NCBI GenBank assembly: GCA_964236265.1
Contig: CAXSDE010000010.1
Location: 2,826-66,825, forward strand
Origin: an uncultured bacterium
GTDB taxonomy: Bacteria; Actinomycetota; Actinomycetes; JAVEEB01
Length of the DNA stretch: 64,000 nt
Reading direction: 5' to 3'
This document shows, piece after piece, positions 9,198-56,585 of this stretch. The stretch's first letter is position 1; each line of letters starts with the position of its first letter. The position numbers and the translations under genes were made by a program. A model generated the notes under the pieces. The model worked only from the letters and a program-made list of their open reading frames with translations, was not told the DNA's origin and searched no databases.

Positions 9198-11042
9198 TCA
9201 GCCGAGCCCCGTCTGCACCGCGGTGAGCAGCTCGCTCGTGGTCGTGTCGCCGCCGAGCTCCCAGACGAAGGCGCCGCCGAGGCCCTGGTTCTTGGCGTAC
9301 GTCATCTTGCCGGTGATCGTCGCCGGTGTGTCGTAGCCCCACCACTGCCCGTTCTGGAAGCAGTACGCGGTGCCGCCGACCGTGCCGTTCGCGGGGCAGG
9401 ATGTCTTGAGCACCTTGTAGGTTTCAATGCCGTTCTCGGTCGTGCCCGGTGCCGGTCCCGTCGCGGAGCCACCCGGTGCGGCCTGCGTCACGCCCTGCCA
9501 GCCACGGCCGTAGAAGCCGATGCCCAGCAGGATCTTCGACGCCGGCACCCCCTTGCTCTTGAGCTTCTGCACCGCCGCGTCGGCGTAGAAGCCCGGCGTC
9601 GGAATGCCCGCGTACGACGTGAGTGGCGAGTGCGGCGCCGTCGGGCCGGTCGGGCTGAAAGCACCGAAGTAGTCGTACGTCATCGGGTCGATCCAGTCGA
9701 GGTAGGGCACCGCGCTGGCGTAGTCCGCCTTGTCGATGTTGCCGCCTGTCGTGCCGTCGGCGGTGATGGCTGCCGTCACGAGCTTGCTGGATCCGAAGCG
9801 GTTGCGCAGCGCGACGACGACGTTCGTGAAGGCGGCCGGCCCGGACGAGTCGCACTGCAGGCCGCACGCGTTGGGGTATTCCCAGTCGATGTCGATCCCG
9901 TCGAACACACCGGTCCAGCGCGGGTCGTTGACGACGTTGTAGCAGCTGTCAGCGAAAGCCGTCGGGTTGGCCGCGGCCTGCGTGAAGCCGGCTGACCATG
10001 TCCAACCACCGAACGAATACAGGACTTTCAGGCCGGGGTGCTTGGCCTTCAGCTCACGCAGCTGGTTGAAGCTGCCGCGCAGCGCGCCCGCATCCCACGT
10101 GTCGGCGACGCCGCTGACACTGTCGGCCGCGGCGTACGCCTGGTCGTAGTCGGCGTAGCTGTCACCCACGGAGCAGACCCCGTTGGCCGTGTTGCCGAAT
10201 GCGTAGACGATGTGCGTCAGTTTCGCCGCGGCGCCGGACGTCTCGATGTTCTTCACGAAGTATTTCGGGGCGTAGACGCCCCACTCCGTGAAGTAGCCGA
10301 CGACCTTCTTCGCGCCCGTGCTCGGCGGCGCGGTGGTTGTCGGCGTCGCGGTGGGCGTCGGCGTCGTGCTGGTCGTCGTACACGGGCCTTTGTCGACCCA
10401 CACGCCGGAGCCGCCGGTGCTCGGTGCCTCGCCCTGCGTCCACCACTTCGCCGTCCACTTGTGGCCGTTGTAGGTCACGCTCTGGTTGGCGGTGTAGACC
10501 GTCGCACTGGCGTAGGCCGGTGCACCCGCGCAGCTCGTCCCCGTGGTGGCGGTCGGGGTCGGGGTCGGCGTCACGGTCGGGGGGGTGCTGCCGGGGCCGG
10601 ACAGGGAGAAGTCGTCGCCGTTGTAGGTGCCCTGGCCATACCAGCCGTGGAGATAGACGGTGACCGCCTTCGTGGTCGCAGCCGTCGTGAAAGTGATGGA
10701 CAGCAGGCTGTACGACGCTGCCGCCGGCGTCCACGTCGACACCTCTGACATGCCGGTGCCCGTGGCGCCGATGTAGACGTAGTTGCCGCGGACGTAGCCG
10801 GCGAAGGTGTAGACCGTGTTGGGCTGCACCGTCACCGTCTGGCTGCACTGCGCGGTGTCACTCGCCGCTCCGGCGACGGCCTTCGTGCCGCCATGCACCG
10901 GCGTCGTGACGACGCTGCCGAGGCTGCACGTCCACGGGCTCACCGCGCCGGTCTCGAAGCCGGGGTTGGTGAGGAGCTCGACGGCGTGGGCGGATGGGAT
11001 CACGGCGGACATGAGCCCCGCGGTGAGCGCGAAGGCGGCCAC
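9198..11042 (-). CDS. Secreted GH18 chitinase with N-terminal CBM4/9-like sugar-binding module and CBM5/12 chitin-binding domain
   Basis: Signal peptide ending AHA; AYASATVYTANQSVTYNGHKWTAKWWTQGEAP (CBM5/12); Thr/Pro linkers; catalytic DGIDIDWEYP motif. GTG start, with an in-frame stop just upstream. Confidence 0.9.
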   Translation of the reverse strand: MAAFALTAGLMSAVIPSAHAVELLTNPGFETGAVSPWTCSLGSVVTTPVHGGTKAVAGAASDTAQCSQTVTVQPNTVYTFAGYVRGNYVYIGATGTGMSEVSTWTPAAASYSLLSITFTTAATTKAVTVYLHGWYGQGTYNGDDFSLSGPGSTPPTVTPTPTPTATTGTSCAGAPAYASATVYTANQSVTYNGHKWTAKWWTQGEAPSTGGSGVWVDKGPCTTTSTTPTPTATPTTTAPPSTGAKKVVGYFTEWGVYAPKYFVKNIETSGAAAKLTHIVYAFGNTANGVCSVGDSYADYDQAYAAADSVSGVADTWDAGALRGSFNQLRELKAKHPGLKVLYSFGGWTWSAGFTQAAANPTAFADSCYNVVNDPRWTGVFDGIDIDWEYPNACGLQCDSSGPAAFTNVVVALRNRFGSSKLVTAAITADGTTGGNIDKADYASAVPYLDWIDPMTYDYFGAFSPTGPTAPHSPLTSYAGIPTPGFYADAAVQKLKSKGVPASKILLGIGFYGRGWQGVTQAAPGGSATGPAPGTTENGIETYKVLKTSCPANGTVGGTAYCFQNGQWWGYDTPATITGKMTYAKNQGLGGAFVWELGGDTTTSELLTAVQTGLG

Positions 11043-11120
11043 GCCGGCAACCTTCCGCAGCCGCGACGCGCGCGGTGTCGATGCCTGGAATGTACGGGCG
11101 ATCTCCCTACCTGGAAGGCG

Positions 11121-11136
11121 AATGGTCTACACCAAT
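11121..11136. promoter_or_regulatory. dre-like (DasR/GntR-HutC responsive element) palindrome 1 upstream of the chitinase gene
   Basis: AATGGTCTACACCAAT matches the Streptomyces dre consensus A(G/C)TGGTCTAGACCA(G/C)T at 13/16 positions (core TGGTCTACACCA, 11/12). Lies about 80 bp upstream of the chitinase start. Confidence 0.5.
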
Positions 11137-11162
11137 TGGACGACAATGGGCCTGTGCCGTCG

Positions 11163-11180
11163 CATTGGTCAAGACCAATC
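11163..11180. promoter_or_regulatory. dre-like palindrome 2 upstream of the chitinase gene
   Basis: CATTGGTCAAGACCAATC, core TGGTCAAGACCA (11/12 to the dre core). Lies about 125 bp upstream of the chitinase start. Confidence 0.5.
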
Positions 11181-11271
11181 CAGCAGAGATTTTCGGGGGA
11201 ACCGCCGAGACTCGCACCAGCGCGCCGCTGCTGCGTGGGCCCGCAATAGTTCCGCAACGGGCGTCGGGACC

Positions 11272-12135
11272 TCAGCCCACGACGACGCCTAGGCCGCTCG
11301 CCTGCGAGAGCAGGTCGCGATAGGCCCCCTCGGTGGTCGTCTCGCAGCCGATCCGGTGGCCGGTGCTCGCGCCGTGATCGTCGCTCGACCCCGTGACGAA
11401 CAGCCCGAGGTCGGCGGCGAGCCGGCGCAGGCGCGCGCGGTCCTCCGGCGTGTGATCGGGGTGGTCGACCTCGAGCCCGGCGAGCCCGTACGCCGCGAGG
11501 TCGGCGATGTCGGCATCGGTCACCACGGGCCCCCGCTTGGCGGCGGCGGGATGAGCGAAAACGGGCACCCCGCCGGCGGCGCGCACGAGCGCCACGGCCC
11601 GGGCGGCGTCCAACGTGTATTTCTCCGTGTACGCGCGCCCGCCCAACCCGATCCACTCCGGGGTGAAGGCGGCCGCGAGGTCGGGCACGACACCCGCGTC
11701 GACGAGGGCGCGCGCCACATGGGGGCGCCCGACGGAGGTCGCGTCGCCGGCGATGGCGGCGACCTGCGCGCGCGAGATGGGCGCCCCGAGGGCGGTCAGC
11801 GTGTCGACCATGGCGCTCGCCCGCCGTTCGCGGTCGGTGGCCAGCGCATAGCGCTCGCCGGCGAAGACCGCCTCGGACGGGTCGAACAGGTAGGCGAGGA
11901 GATGCAGGTCGACCCGGGCACCGGTGCTCGAGTCCATCGCGCACGAGATTTCCGCACCGCTGACGAAGGTCTGGCCGGGCGCCAGCGCCCCGACGGCGGC
12001 CGACCAGCCGTCGGTCGTGTCGTGGTCGGTCAGCGCCACCACGTCGACGCCCGCCCGTGCGGCGAGCCGCATGACGTCAGCCGGGGGATCTGTTCCGTCG
12101 GACACGGACGAGTGGGTGTGAAGGTCGATGCGCAC
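11272..12135 (-). CDS. PHP-domain metal-dependent phosphoesterase (TrpH/YciV-like)
   Basis: MRIDLHTHSSVSDG...HP...DHPDHTP, the typical PHP histidine/aspartate metal-binding motifs. Confidence 0.85.
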   Translation of the reverse strand: MRIDLHTHSSVSDGTDPPADVMRLAARAGVDVVALTDHDTTDGWSAAVGALAPGQTFVSGAEISCAMDSSTGARVDLHLLAYLFDPSEAVFAGERYALATDRERRASAMVDTLTALGAPISRAQVAAIAGDATSVGRPHVARALVDAGVVPDLAAAFTPEWIGLGGRAYTEKYTLDAARAVALVRAAGGVPVFAHPAAAKRGPVVTDADIADLAAYGLAGLEVDHPDHTPEDRARLRRLAADLGLFVTGSSDDHGASTGHRIGCETTTEGAYRDLLSQASGLGVVVG

Positions 12136-12213
12136 CCGGGCAACGGTAGCCGCCGGCGCGACCGCGCCGTCAACACGGAAGCCCTCAGCGCGTGAGCCGT
12201 CAGCCGTCAGCCG

Positions 12214-12846
12214 TCAGCCCGGAAGACTCATGTGCGGCGATGGAGCGCCGCACACGATGGACTCACGCGCCGGCCGGTTGTCGCGCAGATCGGTCAACGT
12301 CAACTGGTCGAGCAGCAGCACGCTCGCCGCGGGGGGCCAGACGACGACCCACAGCCACAGGCCGAGCGCCTCGCCGACGTACGCGAGACGGTCCTGCGCC
12401 GACGGCACGCACCACAGGGGGCAGGCGTGCCCGTCGGCCTCGATGTGCGCGGCTGCTGGCGTTTCGAAGACGTTCCCGGGATCCACCCCGTCGAGTCCGG
12501 CAAACCGCGCCCCCAGCCCGACCCCCGGCTCCTCCGCCACAAGGAGCAGGTCGACCGGGCCGCCGGAGGGGTTGGGACCGGAGAAGCAGAGGGCGCTCGC
12601 GCGCGTGCCACGCGTGTCGTCACCACAGTGACCGAAACCGCTGACGGTCCAGCCGATCATCGACGGGTACGGCACCCACCACGGCGCCTGTGACCGCGAA
12701 GACACCGCGTCGAGCGCCTCCCGGCTGGCCTTGGCAGTCAGGTGAAAAGGCAGTACGTCGCCGTGCCGGTCGCACTGCCAGGCACTCGACCACAAACCCG
12801 GCTCGCGCACCGGCCCACCGCAGCGCGGGCACGTGGGTGGCCTCAT
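12214..12846 (-). CDS. Conserved actinobacterial hypothetical protein with N-terminal CPRCGG zinc-ribbon-like motif
   Basis: ORF 12214..12957. Start chosen at MRPPTCPRCGG; an upstream start at 12888 is possible. Divergent from the NUDIX gene. Confidence 0.45.
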   Translation of the reverse strand: MRPPTCPRCGGPVREPGLWSSAWQCDRHGDVLPFHLTAKASREALDAVSSRSQAPWWVPYPSMIGWTVSGFGHCGDDTRGTRASALCFSGPNPSGGPVDLLLVAEEPGVGLGARFAGLDGVDPGNVFETPAAAHIEADGHACPLWCVPSAQDRLAYVGEALGLWLWVVVWPPAASVLLLDQLTLTDLRDNRPARESIVCGAPSPHMSLPG

Positions 12847-12897
12847 GCAGTCACGGTCCGCCCGCACAGCGAACGCGTCAACCCTCATGCTGGCGGG

Positions 12898-13323
12898 ATG
12901 ACGTCGTCCGCCTCGAAGCCCGTCGCGTGCGTCGGCGCGGTGGTCCGTGATGCCCACGGCCGGTGGCTGCTGGTGCGCCGCGGCACGGAGCCGGGGCGGG
13001 GGCAGTGGTCCGTGCCGGGCGGTCGCGTCGAGGCCGGCGAGTTGCCGACGCGCGCCGTCGCGCGCGAAGTGCTCGAGGAGACGGGGGTCGTGGTCAGGGT
13101 CGGCAGGATCGTCGGGGTGGTCGAGCGTGCCGGACCGGGCGGGGTGTCGTACGAGATCACGGATTTTCTCTGTACGCCGGACCCAGTCGACCGCGTGAGC
13201 GTGCCCGTGGCCGGCGACGACGCCGACGAGGCGCGCTGGGTGCCGGGCGACGAGATGGAGTCGTACGACCTCGTGGCAGGTCTGCTCGACGCGCTCCGCG
13301 ACTGGGGCCTGTTGCGCGGCTAG
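12898..13323 (+). CDS. NUDIX hydrolase (MutT-like)
   Basis: Nudix box GGRVEAGELPTRAVAREVLEETGV. Start taken at MTSSASKPVACVGAVVRD; the upstream part of the track ORF is non-coding-like. Confidence 0.85.
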   Translation: MTSSASKPVACVGAVVRDAHGRWLLVRRGTEPGRGQWSVPGGRVEAGELPTRAVAREVLEETGVVVRVGRIVGVVERAGPGGVSYEITDFLCTPDPVDRVSVPVAGDDADEARWVPGDEMESYDLVAGLLDALRDWGLLRG

Positions 13324-13985
13324 AGCTTGGCCGCCGCGAAGTCGAACTTCTCCGGCGTGAATGCCTTCCCCTTCGTCAGGTACGCGACGGTGATGTCCTC
13401 GTGGTTGGCCAGCTTGACCGCGTTGGGGTCGCCGGTGACGGCCTCGCCGTTCACATACACCTTGAGCTCATGCGAGTCGTCAGCGCAGAGGTTGGCCAGG
13501 CACGTCGCGGTCAGCGGGACGTTCCACTCCTTGAAGACCTGGCCGAGCGTGAAGTCGGCCTGCTTCTCCGACTCGATGTGGATGACGCCCGAGTCGTCGT
13601 GGGTGTGCAGCGGGGACAGGCCGACACCCTCCTGGATGCCCAGAAGGGCCGGGACCGTGACGGGGGTGCCGTCGTTGCTGACCTGGAGGTGGGAGTGGAT
13701 GTGGAACTGGAGCATCTCCTGGCCCAGCACCTGCAAGCCGGCGTTGTGGACGGCCGTCGTCACCGCTGACCCGGTCGGCGCCGGGAAGCTGACCGCCTGC
13801 CCCGGCTGTGCCACGACGGGGGCCGCGGCGGGCTTCTTCCGGAGGCCCAGGACCACGAACGCGATGACGACACCGACCGCGACGACGGTGCCGACCGTGA
13901 TGGCGATCAGCCGGCGGCGGCGGTCGGAGCGCTGAGCCTGGTTGCGCAGCTCCGCGGCCCGCAGTTGAGCCGGGGTGCGCTTGTC
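13320..13985 (-). CDS. Membrane-anchored hypothetical protein (single N-terminal TM helix, extracytoplasmic C-terminal domain)
   Basis: The C-terminal 220 aa of ORF 13320..14528 are protein-like (TM helix LIAITVGTVVAVGVVIAFVVLGL). GTG start at 13985. The N-terminal 180 aa of the track ORF are antisense noise. Confidence 0.5.
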   Translation of the reverse strand, partial: DKRTPAQLRAAELRNQAQRSDRRRRLIAITVGTVVAVGVVIAFVVLGLRKKPAAAPVVAQPGQAVSFPAPTGSAVTTAVHNAGLQVLGQEMLQFHIHSHLQVSNDGTPVTVPALLGIQEGVGLSPLHTHDDSGVIHIESEKQADFTLGQVFKEWNVPLTATCLANLCADDSHELKVYVNGEAVTGDPNAVKLANHEDITVAYLTKGKAFTPEKFDFAAAKL

Positions 13986-14136
13986 ATTCGGTGTCGCCAC
14001 GAGCCGCCCTTTCACAGGAGTCGGCGGCCATTCTCGCAGAGCAACCTGGGTGCCGGCGCGTGAGAGGCTGGGCGGCGTGCCAACCGCCGACCCCGACCGT
14101 GCCGCACCGCCCGACGCGGGGGCGCTGGACGCCGCC

Positions 14137-14496
14137 ATGCGCAAGCGCGCGGTGGTGTGGCTGAGCGTCGCCGGCCAGCGCCCATGCCTCGTGTGGCCGC
14201 TCTGGCACGACCGCACCCTGTATGTGCTGCACGGCGGCGCCGAGCAGTCGGCACCGGGCTTGGCGGAGGCCGCGCGCGGGGCGCTCGCCGTCACCGTCGC
14301 GGTGCCGTCGGCGGGCGCCCGCGAGCTGCTGCTCGAGTGGACCGCGACTGCGCGCGACGTCCCGGCCGGCGGCGTCGAGTGGCTGCGGATCGTGCCGCTC
14401 CTGCTGCCGAAACGGCTCAACCTCCGCGAGCCCGCCACGGCCGTTGAGCGCTGGGCGCGGGACTGCGCGATCACCGCGCTGACTCCGGCCGCGTAG
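14137..14496 (+). CDS. Hypothetical protein
   Basis: Internal ATG (MRKRAVVWLSV) of ORF 13975..14496. It is the only coding-like frame in this gap. Weak call. Confidence 0.35.
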   Translation: MRKRAVVWLSVAGQRPCLVWPLWHDRTLYVLHGGAEQSAPGLAEAARGALAVTVAVPSAGARELLLEWTATARDVPAGGVEWLRIVPLLLPKRLNLREPATAVERWARDCAITALTPAA

Positions 14497-14581
14497 GCCA
14501 CGCCCGCGTCGCCGCCGACGCGACGCACCAGATGGCTGTACGACGCCTGCGGAGGCGCCGCTACCGGGTAGCCTGCCCAGC

Positions 14582-15862
14582 GTGAGCAGCCTCCCTTCGC
14601 GCGTCTTCGTCTCGCGCCTCGCCGGACTGACCGTCCTGGACCCCACGGGGGACCAGGTCGGCCGCCTGCGCGACGTCGTGGTCGCGATGCGCATCGGGAC
14701 GGAGTCGCCCCGGGCCCTGGGGATCGTCGTCGAGATCCAGCAGCGACGCACGATCTTCGTGCCGATGGGCCGCCTCACCGGCATCGACAGCGAGGCCGTC
14801 GTGTTGTCCAGCGGCACCGTGAGCGTGCGGCGCTTCGACAAGCGATCCGGGGAGTCACTCGCGATCGCGGACCTGTTCGACCGCAGCGTGGAGCTCGTCG
14901 AGGATGGCTCCACCACGCCCCGCCCCGTCGTCGTCGTCGACCTCGGCATGGAGCAGAACCGGGCACGCGACTGGCTCGTCACCCGCGTGGCCGTCTCCGA
15001 GCCGGGTCGCCGCCTGCGTCGCCGCGGTCCGATCACCCAGGTGTCGTGGGACGAGGTGCGCGGCCTGTCCCTGCCGCAGGGCCGCCAGGGTGCCGACAAC
15101 CTCCTCGCGGTGTTCGACAAGCTGCGCCCCGCCGACCTCGCCAACGTCATCCAGGACCTGCCGACCAAGCGCCGCGTGGAAGTGGCCGAAGCCCTCGACG
15201 ACGACCGGCTCGCGCAGGTGCTCGCCGAGCTGCCGGAGGACGACCAGCTCGAGATCCTGCAGGCACTCAGCGGGGAACGAGCGGCCGACGTGCTCGAGGC
15301 GATGGGGCCCGATGACGCCGCCGACATCCTGTCCGAGCTGCCGGCGGCCGAGCAGGAGAAGCTCCTCGAGCTGATGCAACCCGAGGACGCGGCGCCGCTG
15401 CGCCGCCTGCTCACCTACGACGTCTACAGCGCCGGCGGCATGATGACGCCCGAGCCGGTGATCCTGCCGCCCAACGCCACCGTCGCCGACGCCCTCGCCC
15501 GGGTCCGCGACCCCGCCGTCAGCCCCGCCCTGGCCTCGGTCGTCTACGTCTGCCGGTCCCCCATGACGACGCCGACCGGCAAATACCTGGGCATGGCGCA
15601 CGTCCAGCGCCTCCTGCGCGAGCCGCCGTCGGCGCAGATCGCCGGCATCCTGGACACCGACATCGAGCCCCTCGGCCCCGACGCGACGCTCGCGGCGGTG
15701 ACCGCCTACCTGGCGACGTACAACCTCGTCGCCGTCCCGATCGTCGACTCCGACGACCACCTCCTCGGCGCCGTCAGCGTGGACGACGTGCTCGACCACC
15801 TCCTGCCCGACGGCTGGCGGGAACGCGGGATGACGCGGGTGGTGACGAATGGCGAAAAGTGA
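14582..15862 (+). CDS. MgtE N-terminal domain / CBS-pair domain protein (Mg2+ transporter MgtE intracellular-domain homolog)
   Basis: Acidic helical MgtE_N region (DDDRLAQVLAELPEDDQLEILQAL) followed by two CBS motifs. Confidence 0.85.
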   Translation: MSSLPSRVFVSRLAGLTVLDPTGDQVGRLRDVVVAMRIGTESPRALGIVVEIQQRRTIFVPMGRLTGIDSEAVVLSSGTVSVRRFDKRSGESLAIADLFDRSVELVEDGSTTPRPVVVVDLGMEQNRARDWLVTRVAVSEPGRRLRRRGPITQVSWDEVRGLSLPQGRQGADNLLAVFDKLRPADLANVIQDLPTKRRVEVAEALDDDRLAQVLAELPEDDQLEILQALSGERAADVLEAMGPDDAADILSELPAAEQEKLLELMQPEDAAPLRRLLTYDVYSAGGMMTPEPVILPPNATVADALARVRDPAVSPALASVVYVCRSPMTTPTGKYLGMAHVQRLLREPPSAQIAGILDTDIEPLGPDATLAAVTAYLATYNLVAVPIVDSDDHLLGAVSVDDVLDHLLPDGWRERGMTRVVTNGEK

Positions 15863-16394
15863 GGTCCCCCGGACCCGCCGTCCCGAACGCCGCCTCGACC
15901 AGCCGCGGGAGCGGATGGGCCGCTCGTGGCGCCCGACCTACGACGCGGATGCGTTCGGCCGCTATTCGGAACGCGTTGCCCGCTTCATCGGCACCGGCAA
16001 GTTCCTGATCTACATGACGGTCTTCGTGACCGTCTGGGTGGCGTGGAACGTGCTCCTGCCGCGTGCCCTGCGGTTCGACCGATTCCCGTTCATCTTCCTG
16101 ACGCTCGCGCTGTCCTTGCAGGCGTCGTACGCCGCGCCCCTGATCCTGCTGGCGCAGAACCGGCAGGCCGACCGCGACCGGGTCCAGCAGCAGGAGGACC
16201 GGACGCAGAACGAGCGCACCCTGGCGGACATGGAATACCTCGCGCGCGAGGTTGCCGCCATCCGCATCTCCATGGGTGAGGTCGCCACGCGCGACTTCAT
16301 CCGCCAGGAGCTCCAGCGCCTGCGCGAGGACGTGGTCGACGACATCGAGGACGGCGCCGCGCTCGACCAGCCGCAGGGCCGCTCGTCCGCCTGA
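15849..16394 (+). CDS. DUF1003 family membrane protein
   Basis: Two TM helices and the conserved LQASYAAPLILLAQNRQADRDR motif. Confidence 0.8.
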   Translation: MAKSEVPRTRRPERRLDQPRERMGRSWRPTYDADAFGRYSERVARFIGTGKFLIYMTVFVTVWVAWNVLLPRALRFDRFPFIFLTLALSLQASYAAPLILLAQNRQADRDRVQQQEDRTQNERTLADMEYLAREVAAIRISMGEVATRDFIRQELQRLREDVVDDIEDGAALDQPQGRSSA

Positions 16395-17599: not shown

Positions 17600-17640
17600 C
17601 TCCCCTGCGACCACCGCCCGCAGACGCCGCCGACCCTGCG

Positions 17641-17723
17641 GTCGCGGGGCTAGTTCGCGGGGCTAGGTCGCGGGGCTAGGTCGCGGGGCTAGGTCCGGGC
17701 TAGGTCAGGGCTAGGTCGCGTCC
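17641..17723. repeat. Intergenic 13-bp tandem repeat (GCGGGGCTAGGTC x4 plus 2 degenerate copies) between convergent mrp and tatB
   Basis: cgcggggctagttcgcggggctaggtcgcggggctaggtcgcggggctaggtccgggctaggtcagggctaggtc. Every unit carries a TAG codon. Confidence 0.85.
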
Positions 17724-20699: not shown

Positions 20700-21759
20700 A
20701 GTCCCTGCGACACTCGCACGAGGATCTTCTCCAGACCTTTCGCGTGCACCTCCCAGCCCATGTCCGTCTCCAGTGCGCCGGGAACGCGGGTGCCCGTCGT
20801 GTGCGGCGGCGGCCCCTGCGGGCGCGCGGCGATGACCTCGCGGAAGTAATAGTTGATGCCGAGATAGTCGAGGGGCTGCGCGATGGTCGCGAGGTCCGCC
20901 GCGTCCACGGGCGGCTCGACGCCGTCCACCTCGACCATGTCCGGCGGGAAGCCGCGACCGAAGACCGGGTCGAGCCACCACCGGTTGGCGTGCCCGTCCG
21001 CGCGCACGGCGGCGAGCGCATCCTCCGCGCTGTCACTCGCCGGCTCGATGGGGCTCAGGTTGAGCACGATCCCGGCCTGCGGGGCCAGCGTCGCCTCGGC
21101 GCGAATCGCCTGCATTCCGAGTCCGTGCGCGAGGAGCAGGTGGGCGCTCGCCGGCACCGCGGCCTTGATGTCCGTGCCGCCCGGTGCCATGACGGCCTCG
21201 AGGTGCCCGAGCCACGCGGAGCACAACGGCTCGTTGAAGGTCGTCCAGTGCTGCACCCGGTCGCCGAGGGCTTTCACGACGACGGACACGTAGTCGGCGT
21301 AGGCGAAGGCGGTGCCGCGCGCCGGCCAGCCGCCGCGGTCCTGCAGCACCTGCGGCAGGTCCCAGAGGTAGAGCGTGACGAACGGGTGTTGCCCCGCTCG
21401 AGGAGTTCGTCGACGAGCGCACTGTAGAAGTCGATGCCCTTGGCGTTGACTGTTCCGGTGCCGCTGGGAATGACGCGCGGCCACGCGATCGAGAAGCGGT
21501 AGGCGTTGGCGCCGGGCTCCTCGATCAGGTCGATGTCGCCGCGCCAGCGGTGGTAGTGGTCACAGGGCACGTCGCCGGCGTCGCCGTTCGCGACTTTGCC
21601 TGGCACGCGCGAGAACGTGTCCCAGATGGACAGCGACCGGCCGTCCTCATCGACGGCGCCTTCGATCTGGTACGACGCTGTCGCGACGCCCCAGACGAAG
21701 TCGGCCCCGAACGGCGGGTTGGCGTCCCCCGGGTGGCGGTCCACGAGGTCGCGGTCCAC
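20700..21759 (-). pseudogene. GH1 beta-glucosidase pseudogene (-1 frameshift in a C-run near 21385; 3-prime ~90 codons including the ITENG nucleophile region missing)
   Basis: N-terminus [15 protein letters not shown]...[10 protein letters not shown] is in frame 1; after ELLERG the frame shifts (ggcaacacccgttcgtc, expected NTPFVTLY) and [13 protein letters not shown]...LNLSP...YLGINYY continues in frame 2. There is no PLYITENG or DNFEW region before the convergent gene at 20576. Confidence 0.75.
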
Positions 21760-21769
21760 GGGACGGCGG

Positions 21770-21900
21770 TCCCTTCGGGTCAGGGGGCGGCGGTCCCTTC
21801 GGGTCAGGCGGGGCGGCGCTCCCTTCGGGTCAGGCGGGGCGGCGCTCCCTTCGGGTCAGGGGGCGGCGGTCCCTTCGGGTCAGGCGGGGCGGGCGTCTCG
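21770..21900. repeat. Five tandem copies of a ~24-27-bp unit (GCGGTCCCTTCGGGTCAGGSGGGCG), each with a CCCTTCGGG mini-hairpin
   Basis: gacggcggtcccttcgggtcagggggcg / gcggtcccttcgggtcaggcggggcg / gcgctcccttcgggtcaggcggggcg / gcgctcccttcgggtcagggggcg / gcggtcccttcgggtcaggcggggcg. Lies between the end of the ABC operon and the GH1 pseudogene start. Confidence 0.85.
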
Positions 21901-21907
21901 AGCGGCG

Positions 21908-23997
<2,090 letters not shown>

Positions 23998-37781: not shown

Positions 37782-38354
37782 TCAGGGCACCCGGAGGGCC
37801 TCTCGGGCGACGCAACCAGCCGCGTGATCGTCGACCATGCCCGTCGCCTGCATGAGCGCGTAGGCGGTCGTGGGCCCGACGAACCGGAACCCTCGGGCCC
37901 GCAAATCGGCCGCCAGCGCCTCGGACTCCGCCGACGTGGTGCGCCCGTCGGCCGGGGCCGCGGCCGGGTTCGGCGCGAACGACCATAGGTGCTCGGACAG
38001 ACCGCCCGGCAGGTCGAGGGACAGTTGGGCATTGCGGATCACTGCGAGGATCTTCGCGCGGTTGCGCACGATGCCGGCGTCGGCCAGCAGCCGCTCCACG
38101 TCACTGTCGTCGTACGACGCGATCCTTTCGATGCTGAACCCGTCGAACGCTGCCCGAAAGGCCTCCCTCTTGCGCAGGACCACGATCCAGGACAGGCCGG
38201 ACTGGAACGACTCGAGCGCCAGCCGTTCGAAGAGGGCGTCGTCGCCGCGCAGCACGCGTCCCCACTCGTCGTCGTGGTAGCGGACGTATTCCGGGGCGCT
38301 GGTCACCCAGCTGCAGCGCAGGACCCCGTCGGGGCCCGGAAGCGGATCTGTCAT
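37782..38354 (-). CDS. tag: DNA-3-methyladenine glycosylase I
   Basis: Start MTDPLPGPDGVLRCSW. Conserved YHDDEWG and ERLALESFQSGLSWI motifs. Syntenic with Mtb Rv1210. Confidence 0.9.
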   Translation of the reverse strand: MTDPLPGPDGVLRCSWVTSAPEYVRYHDDEWGRVLRGDDALFERLALESFQSGLSWIVVLRKREAFRAAFDGFSIERIASYDDSDVERLLADAGIVRNRAKILAVIRNAQLSLDLPGGLSEHLWSFAPNPAAAPADGRTTSAESEALAADLRARGFRFVGPTTAYALMQATGMVDDHAAGCVAREALRVP

Positions 38355-38507
38355 GACACGACCGTAGGCGCGCGCGCCGTCGGGTGCTCCGGTCGGCACG
38401 GCGGCTGTGGACAGCCGCGGCCTGTGGACACGGAGTGATCTGCGTAACAAAAACCCGGACTGACCGACGAGGCCGTGCAGCGCGCCGACGGAACTGCGCC
38501 GCGCGAG

Positions 38508-38981
38508 TCAGCCTGAGGGCTTCACTTTCGCAACCAACTGACCACTGTGCAGGCGTGCGTCGATGTCCTGCAGCGAGGTGCGCAGGTTAGGCAGCGGGAC
38601 GCGCAACCCCCGCTTGTAACGGACCTCCACGCTTGCAAGGTGCATTTGCTCGTAGATCGTCCCGACTGCCGGGTACAGCAGGCCCACCAGTTCGTTGACC
38701 CCCCACACTTTCTCCGGCGGGTCGATGGGTCGGAACCGACCATGGTGACCAGTCGCGTCGCGAGCACCTGGTGTCAGGAACCTGTGCTTCGCTGTGCAGA
38801 GTTGGCCGTCGTCGAAGATCGGGTCCGCAAGAAACGCCGCCTTGACGACGTGGTAGGCCGCGTAGAAGAGCGGAACTGCAGCCCACTCATGCTTCACATC
38901 GGCCAAGGTCTCACCAATCTGCCTGTGATAAGCCGTCCGCGAGACATGCTCGTCGTAGGTTAGTGCCGGCCCTCCAGCCAT
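38508..38981 (-). CDS. Hypothetical basic protein (157 aa) in a lower-GC cassette; possible toxin component (contains an Rx4H-like motif, RDATGHH)
   Basis: The ATG lies 2 nt after the stop of the upstream ORF (TAGgcATG). Local GC is ~57% versus ~70% in the flanks. No recognised family. Confidence 0.5.
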   Translation of the reverse strand: MAGGPALTYDEHVSRTAYHRQIGETLADVKHEWAAVPLFYAAYHVVKAAFLADPIFDDGQLCTAKHRFLTPGARDATGHHGRFRPIDPPEKVWGVNELVGLLYPAVGTIYEQMHLASVEVRYKRGLRVPLPNLRTSLQDIDARLHSGQLVAKVKPSG

Positions 38982-38983
38982 GC

Positions 38984-39403
38984 CTAAGCGAAGACAGACT
39001 CTAGGACAGGGTAGGCAGCCGAAGGGTCCTCGGACAGGCACTCCTCGAAGCTGAATTCGAGCGCCAGCTCGTCCAGGAACATGATCCTGACCTCAGCGAG
39101 TTTGTCCAGGGCGGCACTACGGTTTTCCCATGTGTCGGGGTCAAGCGTGAGCGTGAGGCGCGCGAAGCCGAGGCTAGGGTCTGCCAGCACCTGGATGTGG
39201 GTGAAGGGAACAGTGCCCTTCAGGTTGTCCAAAGTCCACTCGCCCAGAGAAACGACGGTTGCTCTAAAGCTGTCTGGGGACGCCATAGCTAGTCCCATCC
39301 CCCCAAGCGAGCCTGAGCAACAGCTATCGGCTCTGCGCGCAACAACATTGAGCTCTTCATCGAAGTAGGCATCTGGGTCAAAGGTAGCAGAGCTACTCAG
39401 CAC
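38984..39403 (-). CDS. Hypothetical acidic protein (139 aa) in a lower-GC cassette; possible antitoxin/immunity component
   Basis: D/E-rich (FDPDAYFDEELNVV...). Tightly coupled to the downstream 157-aa ORF. Not recognised. Confidence 0.5.
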   Translation of the reverse strand: MLSSSATFDPDAYFDEELNVVARRADSCCSGSLGGMGLAMASPDSFRATVVSLGEWTLDNLKGTVPFTHIQVLADPSLGFARLTLTLDPDTWENRSAALDKLAEVRIMFLDELALEFSFEECLSEDPSAAYPVLESVFA

Positions 39404-39576
39404 TCACCATCTGAGTTTCCTGAGGGCCTCCAGATAGCGGCATGGCGCCCGGGATCTGTGGAAAACCTGGTTGCCAGTCAAACATCGCCCCCACGGGGGC
39501 AGCCGGTGGACACCGGCTGGAAACGGGATCCCGCCTGGAGACGGGTGCCACGCGGCGGGCACGGGCGTCCGAGCGC

Positions 39577-40236
39577 CTATCCGCGCAGCGGGTCCGAGCG
39601 GTCCAGCGGGTCCGAGCGGTCCAGCGGGACGAGAGGGTCGGCTACGCCCTCGCGATACGCGTCGCCTGGCCGGTGGGCGTGCTCGTCGGGGCCACCGGGA
39701 GGCGTGTAGCCGCCAAGATAGGGGGCCTCGGCGACAGGATGCTGGTCGTACGACGGCTGCGCGGGCTGGTCGTAAGACGCCTGCGCGGGTTGGTCGTAAG
39801 ACGCCTGCGCGGGCTGGTCGTAGGACGGCTGCGCGGGCTGGTCGGACGACGGCTGCACCGGCTCGTCGGACGACGGCTGCACCGGCTCGTCGGACGACGG
39901 CTGCGCCGCGAGCGGCGTCCCCCCGGCACCTGCCCGCAGACGGCTGATCTCGGCGTCACGGACGGAGATCTCCGTGGAGAGGCGGTCGAGCACCTCGTCG
40001 ACCTCGTCCATGCGGTAGCCGCGCAGGGCCATGCTGAACCGGACCGCCTCGATGTCGGCGCCAGCTATCCCGTCGGCCGGCAGCACCGGCCCGCGGCGGT
40101 CGGGCAGGGTCTCGGAGAGCGAGCTCCCGTGGCCGACGGCGACGGCCGCGACGCCGAAGAGCAGGCCGGCGAGCAGTAGTACGGCGAGGACGAGCACAGC
40201 CACTCCCAGGTCGAGGTACGTATGCGATCGTGCCAC
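39577..40236 (-). CDS. DivIVA-domain membrane protein with C-terminal Pro/Gln/Ser-rich tandem 8-aa repeats
   Basis: N-terminal TM segment. DivIVA motif FSMALRGYRMDEVDEVLDRL. Repeats QPSSDEPV x2 and QPAQ(A/P)SYD x4, encoded by seven 24-bp DNA repeats (39760-39910). Confidence 0.7.
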   Translation of the reverse strand: MARSHTYLDLGVAVLVLAVLLLAGLLFGVAAVAVGHGSSLSETLPDRRGPVLPADGIAGADIEAVRFSMALRGYRMDEVDEVLDRLSTEISVRDAEISRLRAGAGGTPLAAQPSSDEPVQPSSDEPVQPSSDQPAQPSYDQPAQASYDQPAQASYDQPAQPSYDQHPVAEAPYLGGYTPPGGPDEHAHRPGDAYREGVADPLVPLDRSDPLDRSDPLRG

Positions 40237-40933: not shown

Positions 40934-41842
40934 TCAGTGACCAAGCCCGTTGTGGCTGACGGGGAGCCACTCGGCCTGCTCGCTGTGCACCTCGAGAATG
41001 TGCCGCACGGCGTCGTCGACGTCGTCGGTGACATACATGAGGGCGATGTCGTCGAGGGCGATCTTCTTCGACGGCGCGACGGTGTCACGGAGCCAGGAGA
41101 TGAGGCCGTTCCAGTACGAAGAGTTGAACAGGACAACGGGAAAGCGCGTCACCTTGCCGGTCTGCACGAGCGTCAATGCCTCGAAGAGCTCGTCGAAGGT
41201 CCCGAACCCGCCCGGCATGACGACGAACGCCTGTGCGTACTTGACGAACATCGTCTTGCGTGCAAAGAAATAACGGAACTGCAGGCCGATGTCGACGTAG
41301 TCGTTGAGCCCTTGCTCGAAGGGCAGCTCGATGCCGAGCCCGATGGACGTGCCGTCGTTGTCGCTCGCACCCTTGTTGGCAGCCTCCATGATGCCGGGAC
41401 CGCCGCCCGTGATGATCGCGTAGTCCTTGTCCGTGAGGAGCTTGGCGATGCGCTCCGCCGCGAGATAGTCGGGGTCGGCCGGATCCGTACGGGCAGAACC
41501 GAAGATGCTCACCGCCTTGCCTGTTCCCGCGAGCAGCCCGAAGCCCTCGACGAACTCCGCCTGAATGCGCAGGACGCGCCACGGGTCGGTGTGGACCCAG
41601 TCGCCGTCACCCTTGTTGTCCAGGAGCCGCTGGTCGGTGGTGCTGCCCTTGTCGCCGTGCGCCTGCTGGCGCCGCAGGACGACCGGACCGCGCCGCTTCT
41701 CGGGGACGGCATGGCTTGGCGAGGCGGCGCTCGAGTGCGTCGCGCGTTCGAGCTCCTCGTGGGAGTGGGTCTCGGCGGCCTCGTGCTCCTGGGCGGTCGA
41801 GGCACCGCTGGTGTCGTCATTCATGTGGTCCACGGTAGTCAT
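40934..41842 (-). CDS. LOG family protein, long form (Rv1205-like) with N-terminal extension
   Basis: VSIFGSART...IITGGGPGIMEAANKGA...MPGGFGTFDELFE. Confidence 0.9.
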   Translation of the reverse strand: MTTVDHMNDDTSGASTAQEHEAAETHSHEELERATHSSAASPSHAVPEKRRGPVVLRRQQAHGDKGSTTDQRLLDNKGDGDWVHTDPWRVLRIQAEFVEGFGLLAGTGKAVSIFGSARTDPADPDYLAAERIAKLLTDKDYAIITGGGPGIMEAANKGASDNDGTSIGLGIELPFEQGLNDYVDIGLQFRYFFARKTMFVKYAQAFVVMPGGFGTFDELFEALTLVQTGKVTRFPVVLFNSSYWNGLISWLRDTVAPSKKIALDDIALMYVTDDVDDAVRHILEVHSEQAEWLPVSHNGLGH

Positions 41843-47770: not shown

Positions 47771-48310
47771 ATGAAAGCACTGCTCGGCCGCGCACGACCG
47801 GCAGGTTTCGTTCTTGCCGCCGGCCTCGCCGTTGCCTCCTGCTCATCCTCGGCCAGCACTACGGCCGCCGCGCCGGCGACCACTGCGACGCAGGCGGCAT
47901 CGCCCCCCGGCACGTCGCCCGGCGGCACGTCGCCCGGCGGCACGTCGCCCGGCGGCACGTCGCCCGGCGGAACGTCCACGTCGACACCGGCGTCGATGTC
48001 CGCGGCTGACGGCAGCGCCTCCTCCTCGGCCCCCGCTGGCGGCGGCGGTGGCGAGTGCGGGACCGCACATGACGCAGCCGGCAAGGCCCTGGCGGCCAAT
48101 AGCGACGTGACATCGTTCGAGATCGGCGCCGGCTGCGACGTCACCATCAGCACCGCGTTCACCGAGACCGGCGACCCCAAGGCGATGGCCTTGTGCGATG
48201 CCGTAGGCAAGGTGGCCTACCCCGCGGGGGGCAAGTCCGTCACGGTCCTCGGTGCCGCAGACAAGGAAATCGCCATCGGGATCAAGGGACAGCGCTGCAT
48301 CCGCGGCTGA
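47771..48310 (+). CDS. Lipoprotein with GTSPG tandem repeats, unknown function
   Basis: MKALLGRARPAGFVLAAGLAVASC lipobox. (GTSPG)x4. The C-terminal domain has two Cys pairs. Confidence 0.6.
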   Translation: MKALLGRARPAGFVLAAGLAVASCSSSASTTAAAPATTATQAASPPGTSPGGTSPGGTSPGGTSPGGTSTSTPASMSAADGSASSSAPAGGGGGECGTAHDAAGKALAANSDVTSFEIGAGCDVTISTAFTETGDPKAMALCDAVGKVAYPAGGKSVTVLGAADKEIAIGIKGQRCIRG

Positions 48311-54755: not shown

Positions 54756-56585
54756 TTACTTCTGCGCGGACTTCGAGAACACGTTGAGCAGGATCTGCTC
54801 GTTGTCCGGGACGTTCCAGGGCGCGGGCTGCGCGTAGGGGTTGTCCTTGGTCGGCCAGCCGTCGAAGTCCGTGGTGTTGTACTGATACCAATCCACGGAT
54901 TCCGTCGTCGGGATGAACGGCACGTCGGCGATCATCGCGGCCTCGATCTGCTTGACGATCGCGATCTGGCCGGCGTCGTCGGCGGAGGCGTATTTATCGA
55001 ACAGCGCGTCGAGCGCCGGGTTCTTGTAGCGCATGTAGTTGGACGGCGCATCCGTGCCGATCGGTGCCGAGTTCTTCGAGTAGAGCAACTGGCGAAGCTC
55101 GTAGTAGGGCGACGGTCCAGCCGACAGCTGCGGCCCGTAGGCCAGGTCGAAGTCGCCCTTGTAGAGGCGGTCGTTGTAGGTCTGACCCTCGAGGTCCTTG
55201 ATAGTCAACGAGATGCCCAGCGGCTTGAGCTGCTGCTTGATGACCGCCAGCGAGGCGTCCCAGTCGGTGTAACCGGACACCGTGATGACGTCGAGCTCGA
55301 GCGGGTTGTCCGGCGTGTAGCCCGCCCCGGCCAGCAGCTCCTTCGCCTTGGCCGGGTTGGGCTTGTCGTAACCGGAGGCGGTCAGCGCGGCGGAGTCGAA
55401 GTATTTGTCGAACGTAGGGACGACGATGCCGGTCTGATTGGCGGCGGGCTGGTAGCCGCTCTCCCCGATCTTCGAGATCTGCGCTCGGTCGAGACCGTAG
55501 GCGATCGCCTGCCGGACGGCCAGCGTGCTCGTGGCCTTGTGCGACGGGTCGACGTTGGGCAGGAGGGCGACGTTCATCATCGGCGGGAACCAGTAATTGT
55601 TGTCCGGCGACTTGCCCTTGTAGAACGTGTCGATGTTGGGGATGTATTGCCCGCCCCATTGCGCCTTGTTGTTGGCGAGGTCGAGGTTGGCCGGATTGTT
55701 GTCGAGATACGCCGGATACTGCACCGTCTGGATCGCGGGCTTGCCCGGCTGCCAGTAGTGCGGGTTGGCCGTGTAGGTGATGTTGTTGGGCGTGCACGGG
55801 TGGACCATGAACGGCCCGGTGCCGACGGGGTTGGGGTCGGCCCAGGTGTCGCCCTTCGACGCGGCTTCGCCGGTCGACCAGATGTGCTTCGGAACGATGG
55901 TGACCGTGCCGGCAAACAGGTAGAAGTAGGCCTGCGCGGGCTGCGCGAACGTCAGCGTCACGGTGCTGCCCGACGCCGTGGCGCTCTGCAGCCCCGCGCC
56001 GGTCCACAGCGAGTAGAGATCCAGGGCGGGGTTCTTCTTCATGAGCTCGAACGTGTAGGCGACATCGTCGGCCGAGAACGGCTGACCGTCGTTCCAGGTC
56101 ACGTTCTGGCGCACGGTGAAGGTGATGGACTTCTTGTCGGAGCTCCACTTGTAGGACTCGGCGAGCATCGGCGTCTCGGCACCCGCCTTCAACGCGTTGA
56201 CGTAGACGAGGGGCTCGTAGACGAACCCGTTCGCCTGGGGGCTGACGGCCGGATTGAACGGGTTGAACTGGCACGTCCAGCTAGCGCCGGACTCGTTCGA
56301 GATCGTCAGCGTGCCGCCCGGCTTGTGCACCGTCGTGTCGGCACCGGTGCCCGTCGGTGACGGCGCCGCGGACTGCGACCCCGATCCCGTCGCGCTGCCC
56401 GGTCCGCTCGGGCTGCTCGTCGCCCCGCCGGCCGTCCCCCCACTGGTCGTCCCCCCGCCGGCCGTCCCCCCGCCGGCCGTCGAGGTCGAGGTCGCCGTCG
56501 TGCTGCTCCCCCCACTCGTGCAGGCGGCGGCCAACAGAGCCACCACGCCAGCGACAGCCGCACCGGATATGCGCCTCATCGTCAT
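54756..56585 (-). CDS. ABC transporter substrate-binding lipoprotein, family 5 (oligosaccharide/peptide)
   Basis: LLAAAC lipobox; Gly/Thr/Ser-rich linker; SBP_bac_5 domain. Confidence 0.9.

Follow-up and report, generated by a model that had tools for sequence, protein, structure and literature searches.

The DNA analysed here, a stretch of 64,000 nucleotides that we call the window, carries on its minus strand at 38508-39403 a pair of small coupled genes, ORF-A and ORF-B. We read this block as a self-contained module of two genes, acquired horizontally and of the toxin-antitoxin or abortive-infection type, and we put the probability of that reading at about 60%. The block has an atypical base composition, ORF-B is conserved and has a well-supported HEPN fold, homologs of the two genes are linked in a constant order while their contexts are mobile and varied, and both genes are under purifying selection. 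A preliminary description of the sequence had already proposed a toxin-antitoxin or defence role for the pair. That proposal is supported, and our tests of GC content, homolog context, ORF-B fold and gene order did not refute it. We infer RNase activity, toxicity, binding between A and B, a trigger and an anti-phage role from established HEPN biology.

The gene pair and its surroundings

The cassette (38508-39403) had a GC content of 60.5% versus a window mean of 69.3%, a significant drop (z = -3.1 among 896-nt windows), and only 0.08% of the 896-nt windows in the 64 kb matched or undercut it. The preliminary figure of ~57% therefore captured a real drop but slightly overstated it for the block as a whole; in 300-nt windows, values of 57.7-58.3% were reached only across ORF-A and its leader. 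GC3 was 0.69-0.75 in the cassette and 0.86-0.93 in five neighbouring genes (the DivIVA-like gene, tag, pepA, and both LOG genes). Pfam identified the flanking genes as a 3-methyladenine glycosylase (Adenine_glyco) and two LOG/Lysine_decarbox genes, while the DivIVA-like gene had a sub-threshold match to Pfam DivIVA (E 0.001). Public gene calls near the cassette included a DUF3117 protein and an M17 peptidase as well. The cassette had the orientation of its neighbours, in the order DivIVA-like, A, B, tag, DUF3117, pepA. No integrase or transposase was found near the window copy, which is solitary, and the window contained no tRNA genes or Rfam families. Exact look-ups of a cassette protein and of the neighbouring DUF3117 protein matched this genome alone. 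The cassette was apparently acquired horizontally. Its genes and their junction are located as follows.

38984..39286, minus strand: ORF-A, putative antitoxin/partner, 100 aa, pI 4.1
38979..38986, minus strand: stop-start junction TAGgcATG, read from the sequence, with the A stop at 38984-38986 and the B start at 38979-38981
38508..38981, minus strand: ORF-B, putative RNase toxin/effector, 157 aa from ATG, modelled HEPN fold

The stop-start arrangement reported earlier for this minus-strand pair was present, with the junction reading ...GCT TAG gc ATG GCT..., and judged by its sequence it is a site of translational coupling between A and B. A longer GTG form of ORF-B overlaps. The list of open reading frames gives A as 38984-39403, 139 aa from GTG. 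The public gene call for A is 100 aa (MASPDSF...), the N-termini of all homologs align with this 100-aa form, and the 39-codon extension has a GC3 of 0.51, below its GC1 of 0.62, which is a non-coding pattern. On these three grounds we took A as 38984-39286; the product described as a 139-aa protein is most likely 100 aa from the ATG at 39286, not the GTG at 39403. The pairing of an acidic first product with a basic second one holds in the window (pI 4.1 for A and 8.7 for B), but basicity is not a trait of the B family, which has a median pI of 6.7.

Several sequence elements flank the two genes.

39287..39480, minus strand: low-GC 5' leader, 56.7% GC, including the non-coding 39-codon 'extension' of the 139-aa ORF
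38446..38510, minus strand: imperfect hairpin plus GGGUUUUUGUU, beginning at the ORF-B stop codon
38512..38523, plus strand: left copy, CCTGAGGGCTTC, of a 12-nt direct repeat (partner at 39419-39430)
39419..39430, plus strand: right copy, CCTGAGGGCCTC, of the 12-nt direct repeat (partner at 38512-38523)
39500..39519, no strand assigned: perfect 20-bp palindrome, CAGCCGGTGGACACCGGCTG, outside the low-GC block

The leader at 39287..39480 is the probable promoter region of the cassette; a promoter scan of it found no consensus promoter, and a G-rich Shine-Dalgarno-like run precedes the ORF-A ATG. At the other end, the T-run that had been placed after the cassette is there (GGGTTTTTGTT at 38446-38456, minus strand). 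The hairpin at 38446..38510 had an MFE of -26.5 kcal/mol, no better than shuffles (z = 0.64), and the terminator scan called neither this hairpin nor the double hairpin at the palindrome. It is possibly, on weak evidence, the intrinsic terminator of the cassette. The two copies of the direct repeat bracket the cassette and are identical at 11/12 positions, with an equally good pair in 10/300 shuffles of the two flanking zones; the repeat is no more than suggestive of an insertion junction. The palindrome exists, though at 39500-39519 and not at 39494-39513 as first given, a difference of 6 nt. Past it on the minus strand lie a second GC hairpin and then GAUGUUU, and folding of the region was no better than shuffles (z = -0.73). 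The palindrome probably belongs to the terminator of the upstream DivIVA-like gene rather than to an operator. A shared operator built on the GTGTCCAC motif common to both flanks was considered and rejected, as the motif occurs at chance frequency.

Protein families, linkage and genomic contexts

ORF-B family. A word-indexed search of 5.8 billion proteins with ORF-B returned only ORF-B itself. When 1.84 billion cluster representatives (50% identity clusters) were scanned exhaustively with HMMER, 109 were recovered at E <= 1e-3, of which 78 reached E <= 1e-10. The relatives were nearly all ~150 aa and 30-50% identical. One homolog of 320 aa consists of two B domains fused in tandem, as would suit B working as a dimer. 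As the preliminary description had stated, neither protein matches a recognised family: there were no meaningful matches to A or B in Pfam, NCBIfam, PADLOC, or PHROGs. B matched none of the PADLOC defence models, the AbiV models in PADLOC matched none of 68 relatives either, and the B profile had no significant match among PDB sequences. Searches with tblastn found no match to B in INPHARED phages (50,697 records) or PLSDB plasmids (72,556 records). A relationship to the HEPN defence protein gp57r of mycobacteriophage Butters was ruled out, since INPHARED gave no match.

Linkage. We fetched every available B homolog locus from Logan, JGI, GTDB-genome, and IMG/VR sources, giving 17 distinct loci besides the window copy. 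Each contained exactly one A and one B, and the A homolog lay directly upstream of the B homolog on the same strand in 17/17. This is the antitoxin-then-toxin layout that had been proposed from the window alone. Junctions varied between a 4-nt overlap and a 19-nt gap, and the upstream frame was open and intact in all 17 loci, with a length of ~96-105 aa. The pair is small, co-oriented, coupled, always complete, and found in variable or mobile contexts, as in the generic type II toxin-antitoxin arrangement. Homologs of B are rare (~109 clusters at 50% identity) and their contexts varied with no fixed synteny, unlike widespread housekeeping genes. The contexts included the following.

Locus L002: integrase, HTH, then A-B adjoining a holin/amidase lysis cassette
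Loci L003-L006: prophage with tape measure, HK97-gp10-like protein, resolvase, HTH regulators, and integrase
Locus L013: IMG/VR prophage, with A-B between host ychF and a phage integrase, and then genes for a repressor and an antirepressor
Locus L010 (Isoptericola nanjingensis): A-B at the margin of an island of lower GC3, which terminates in a tyrosine integrase by tRNA-Gly
Locus L018: integrase-HTH-AAA_25 element
Locus L019: resolvase neighbour
Locus L012: A-B straight after a tRNA-Glu/Asp/Phe cluster
Locus L020: A-B adjoining Tad pilus genes

Cultured hosts of the pair were Micromonospora (three genomes), Isoptericola, and Arthrobacter, and one locus came from a Candidatus Lumbricidophila MAG. 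Cassette GC3 was again below that of the flanks in the Micromonospora and Isoptericola loci (L008-L010).

ORF-A family. Homology among the upstream proteins was recovered with a leave-one-out profile (E = 8e-18), and at four further loci the upstream ORF matched A at E 1e-14 to 2.5e-21. All 14 aligned homologs were acidic (pI 4.1-4.8). The sole near-invariant residue among them was Gly14, within an SLG[NE] motif. Further features of the family are the motif F-x-D-E-L, an acidic linker that varies between members, and a C-terminal tail of aromatic character, [FY]-x-[FYH]-A. None of the 14 homologs matched NTP_transf_2, Polbeta, or any other NTase family at E <= 1. The A profile had no significant match among all PDB sequences and no MNT match at E <= 10. 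S6 and a designed ferredoxin matched at an insignificant E of 0.3-0.8, the sole hint that A might be ferredoxin-like or a degenerate MNT. Searches of A detected no HTH, RHH, or AbrB domain and nothing else recognisable as a DNA-binding or enzyme domain. A single-sequence model showed a beta-hairpin followed by a long helix but is unreliable (pLDDT 48). Going by these searches, A is a member of an undescribed protein family. For the Micromonospora pair, dN/dS was ~0.13 for A, and pN was 0.15 versus a pS of 0.81 for B; both genes are therefore maintained as proteins.

Fold and candidate active site of ORF-B

We modelled B with AlphaFold2 from a 13-sequence alignment (pLDDT 96.1, pTM 0.90). The model has four long helices, at residues 9-28, 32-52, 95-121 (with a break at 103), and 130-145, and a 40-residue insert of short helices and a beta-hairpin separates the second from the third. 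This four-helix up-down bundle with a helix-2/helix-3 insert corresponds to the HEPN fold, that of the RNase toxins of which a motif in the protein had reminded the preliminary description. Its structural neighbours and their scores were as follows.

2hsb, AF0298: 13.5
1ufb, TT1696: 10.9
1wol, ST0689: 10.7
2jpu: 10.4
3o10, sacsin HEPN: 9.6
4nqf: 8.6
5yep_B, HepT toxin SO_3166: 7.8

Foldseek returned 1ufb, 4nqf, and 2hsb as the top matches, with probabilities of 0.80-0.99, and a search of the viral folds in BFVD gave no credible match. By sequence, B itself had no match to Pfam HEPN PF05168 at E <= 1, leaving it short of the gathering threshold, and 7/68 relatives had weak matches to the same family (best E = 0.001). 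An hhalign comparison of B with TT1696/TM0613/ST0689 was colinear over the domain and weak (E 0.041). Given the structural neighbours, the Foldseek matches, and the weak PF05168 matches, the predicted HEPN fold of B is well supported; membership in a named HEPN sequence family is not.

Two conserved segments mark the candidate active site.

38745..38762, minus strand: codons of R74-D-A-T-G-H79 (Rx4H), in the insert that separates the second and third core helices
38616..38633, minus strand: codons of S117-V-E-V-R121-Y122, at the end of core helix 3

The Rx4-6H motif of HEPN domains lies at the end of helix 3 or the start of the loop to helix 4 (PMC3710099). AF0298-type HEPN-T proteins and AbiV usually do without that histidine and keep the basic residue (Anantharaman et al., PMC3710099), with an alternative conserved histidine supplied by the helix-2/helix-3 insert (PMC3710099). 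The Rx4H that the preliminary description picked out in ARDATGHHGR does exist and is conserved, though it lies away from the canonical HEPN position. In the model, R74x4H79 is placed between helix 32-52 and helix 95-121, in an insert spanning residues 53-94. H79 was kept in 68/68 members of the family; R74 was kept in 59/68, with Lys in another 3, and was replaced in 13% overall. At the canonical position, helix 104-121 of the model terminates at R121, which occupies the place of the HEPN arginine, and no histidine follows within 4-6 residues (VRYKRGLRV in B, VRYxxGL in the family consensus). The hhalign comparison set the VRY of B onto the TRYP of TT1696/TM0613/ST0689, while the GHS position of TT1696 fell on V95, with H79 15 residues upstream. 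With R121 and the insert-borne H79 both present in 68/68 members, the family shows the AF0298-type HEPN-T/AbiV variant pattern, and H79 is a candidate catalytic histidine, whose arginine partner would be either R74, as in AbiV, or R121, as in AF0298. The invariant residues in the 68-member alignment were F39, Y40, H79, G94, S117, R121, and Y122, with W33, D53, Y103, and Y110 nearly invariant; H44 was His in 59/68 and H114 in 61/68.

In the mechanism that we propose, B would be a stand-alone, dimeric, metal-independent RNase whose active site combines the insert-borne His79 (Rx4H, as in AbiV) with Arg121 and Tyr122, where helix 3 ends. A would be translated first from the same transcript, with TAGgcATG coupling the translation of B, and would bind and neutralise B stoichiometrically, possibly via its acidic linker and aromatic C-terminal tail. 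Loss or inactivation of A through phage infection, stress, or loss of the element would then free B to cut RNA and arrest growth. We hold a narrower version more tentatively and consider it somewhat doubtful: that the pair is an unrecognised prophage- or island-borne abortive-infection system of Actinomycetota, in which an acidic A of new fold both inhibits an AbiV-like, non-canonical HEPN RNase and senses the phage trigger.

The pair could instead be a non-toxic accessory, with B a non-catalytic HEPN protein of nucleotide-binding, RNA-binding, or regulatory function, like MtlR and the C-terminal domains of nucleotidyltransferases, and A its functional partner. We consider this unlikely. [quoted passage not shown] However, the invariant H79, S117, R121, and Y122 together with the conserved R74, H44, and H114 form a pattern typical of active sites and not of scaffolds, and the same arrangement is catalytic in AbiV. 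Strict linkage, coupling, and scatter across mobile elements are also hallmarks of toxin-antitoxin and defence genes, which argues against a pair without toxicity.

Less probable again is an inert relic, a cassette that was transferred horizontally and has ceased to be expressed or to function in this genome. The copy is solitary with no mobile-element genes nearby, its leader yielded no consensus promoter, and apparently no close sequenced relatives carry it, all as a relic might appear. Yet both ORFs are full length with every invariant family residue kept, the coupling junction is intact, and the orientation shared with the flanking genes would allow read-through transcription.

Novelty and comparison with known systems

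HEPN RNases are effectors in many immune and addiction systems, including Cas13, Csm6, HepT, RnlA, AbiV, and PrrC. HEPN toxins and HEPN-based toxin-antitoxin and abortive-infection systems are well known. What is new, as far as sequence comparison can tell, is the B family, absent from Pfam, NCBIfam, PHROGs, and PADLOC, and, more than that, the family of its partner A, which has no relation to MNT, RnlB, or RNA antitoxins. As a toxin-antitoxin or abortive-infection module, the pair would add a HEPN family wholly overlooked by current annotation and defence-finder models, with a non-canonical active-site layout for which experimental support so far comes from AbiV only. It is a small (~0.8 kb), testable module from actinobacterial prophages, and it could reveal how inhibition works at a HEPN site whose histidine comes from an insert. 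Prophage-encoded defence in actinobacteria affects phage therapy and strain engineering. If the pair is a simple toxin-antitoxin pair, it would be a useful gain for annotation and no conceptual surprise.

HEPN-T proteins (Pfam PF05168; AF0298, TT1696, TM0613, ST0689) occur in MNT-HEPN modules (PMC3710099). B scores nothing against PF05168 and does not have its histidine at the GHS position of TT1696, and its partner A is, by sequence searches, not a minimal nucleotidyltransferase. HepT of the SO_3166/SO_3165 HepT-MntA pair (type VII toxin-antitoxin, DUF86 HEPN/MNT) has a canonical Rx4HxY and is neutralised by AMPylation (PMC7641770, PMC4621449), whereas ORF-A has no NTase motifs or matches, and its one near-invariant residue is a Gly. 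The minimal nucleotidyltransferase of HEPN-MNT pairs is marked by G[SG]...DxD. RnlA and LsoA (RnlA-RnlB and LsoA-LsoB) are large multidomain HEPN toxins with a small protein antitoxin gene downstream (PMC8266594); A has no sequence similarity to RnlB, as it has no family matches.

AbiV of Lactococcus (abiV2 + abiV1) is a HEPN RNase whose activity requires Rx6H (bioRxiv 10.1101/2024.05.05.592566). The motif, 91-RNHKSKH-97, lies in a flexible segment (77-100) between core helices alpha3 and alpha7, and R91A and R91A/H97A abolish the rRNA-degrading activity, although the Arg and His are not strictly conserved in the AbiV family (bioRxiv 10.1101/2024.05.05.592566). The enzyme is inhibited by the transcript of the small upstream ORF abiV2, and a premature stop codon in that ORF is tolerated (bioRxiv 10.1101/2024.05.05.592566). 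The pair differs from this system in that 0/68 B members match the PADLOC or Pfam AbiV models, B is 157 aa versus 199 aa for AbiV, and the hosts belong to Actinomycetota rather than Bacillota. The inhibitor differs as well, reported to be RNA for AbiV, whereas ORF-A is conserved as an acidic protein of ~100 aa. A type III-like arrangement as reported for AbiV, in which the ORF-A region yields an antitoxin RNA that binds B and the A protein is irrelevant, would suit the resemblance of B to AbiV in structural neighbours and motif placement and the tolerated stop codon of abiV2, but it is improbable given that A is conserved as a protein by its profile E-value and dN/dS, that its frame is intact at every other locus with products of uniform length and acidity, that a Shine-Dalgarno-like run precedes its ATG in the window, and that the region contains no repeats or Rfam matches.

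The likeness to AbiV lies in the organisation of the locus and in the architecture of the protein. Both systems have a stand-alone HEPN protein with a small gene upstream. The nearest structural neighbours of the AbiV crystal structure are 2HSB, 1UFB, 3O10, and 3JYY (bioRxiv 10.1101/2024.05.05.592566), and these are common with B (AF0298 2HSB, TT1696 1UFB, sacsin 3O10, LinB 3JYY). Both proteins also carry an Arg-x(4-6)-His motif between core helices, R74x4H79 in B and 91-RNHKSKH-97 in AbiV.

Internal promoter candidate and relatives of ORF-B with a fused or possibly fused architecture

Within ORF-A, the acidic putative antitoxin, and upstream of ORF-B, the HEPN-fold putative RNase toxin, a sigma-70-like promoter match (TGGACA-16-GATCAT) was located on the minus strand at 39081-39108. 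It was the sole such match across 38300-39700, where 0.1 were expected. This predicted promoter could serve as an internal promoter for ORF-B.

Two metagenomic relatives of ORF-B stood out for their architecture. P0065 (320 aa) contained two B-type HEPN domains fused in tandem, and in the P0066 ORF the last 23 residues of an ORF-A homolog continued in frame into an ORF-B homolog. In P0066, A and B could be fused naturally, or the joined frame could be an artefact of sequencing.

An island lies beside the homologous cassette in Isoptericola nanjingensis:

L010:8555-16268, island beside the homologous cassette, Isoptericola nanjingensis

Hypoth_Ymh and DUF6221 were among the families found in it, together with an excisionase-like gene of the HTH_17 type and, next to a tRNA-Gly, a gene for a tyrosine integrase. 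Several ORFs within 8555-16268 had no family match. This region is possibly a defence island.

Composition and repeats in neighboring genes

GC fell locally a second time, to 0.60 over windows of 300 nt, inside the longer LOG-family gene (40934-41842, minus strand), especially at 41000-41400. Because GC3 was still high there (0.88), the dip looks like an effect of amino acid composition and not foreign DNA.

The gene adjoining the cassette was itself repetitive:

39577-40236, minus strand, DivIVA-like gene

It matched Pfam DivIVA only weakly (E 0.001). At 39741-39906 a 24-nt unit was repeated 6.9 times in frame, encoding the octapeptides PAQPSYDQ / PVQPSSDE, and the 3' end of the gene had a further repeat with an 18-nt unit (x2.4; 39586-39628).

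Tandem arrays elsewhere in the window

Four further arrays were found:

17640-17720, short tandem array, 13-nt x6.5
21759-21892, GC-rich tandem array, 5.3 copies of a 26-nt unit, CGGGGCGGCGGTCCCTTCGGGTCAGG
47900-47976, short tandem array, 15-nt x5.1
56418-56481, short tandem array, 15-nt x4.3

The array with the 26-nt unit lies within the gap separating the minus-strand ORFs 21274-21759 and 21908-23815, and each unit contains a small CCC-TTC-GGG hairpin. It is an intergenic, VNTR/MIRU-like array.
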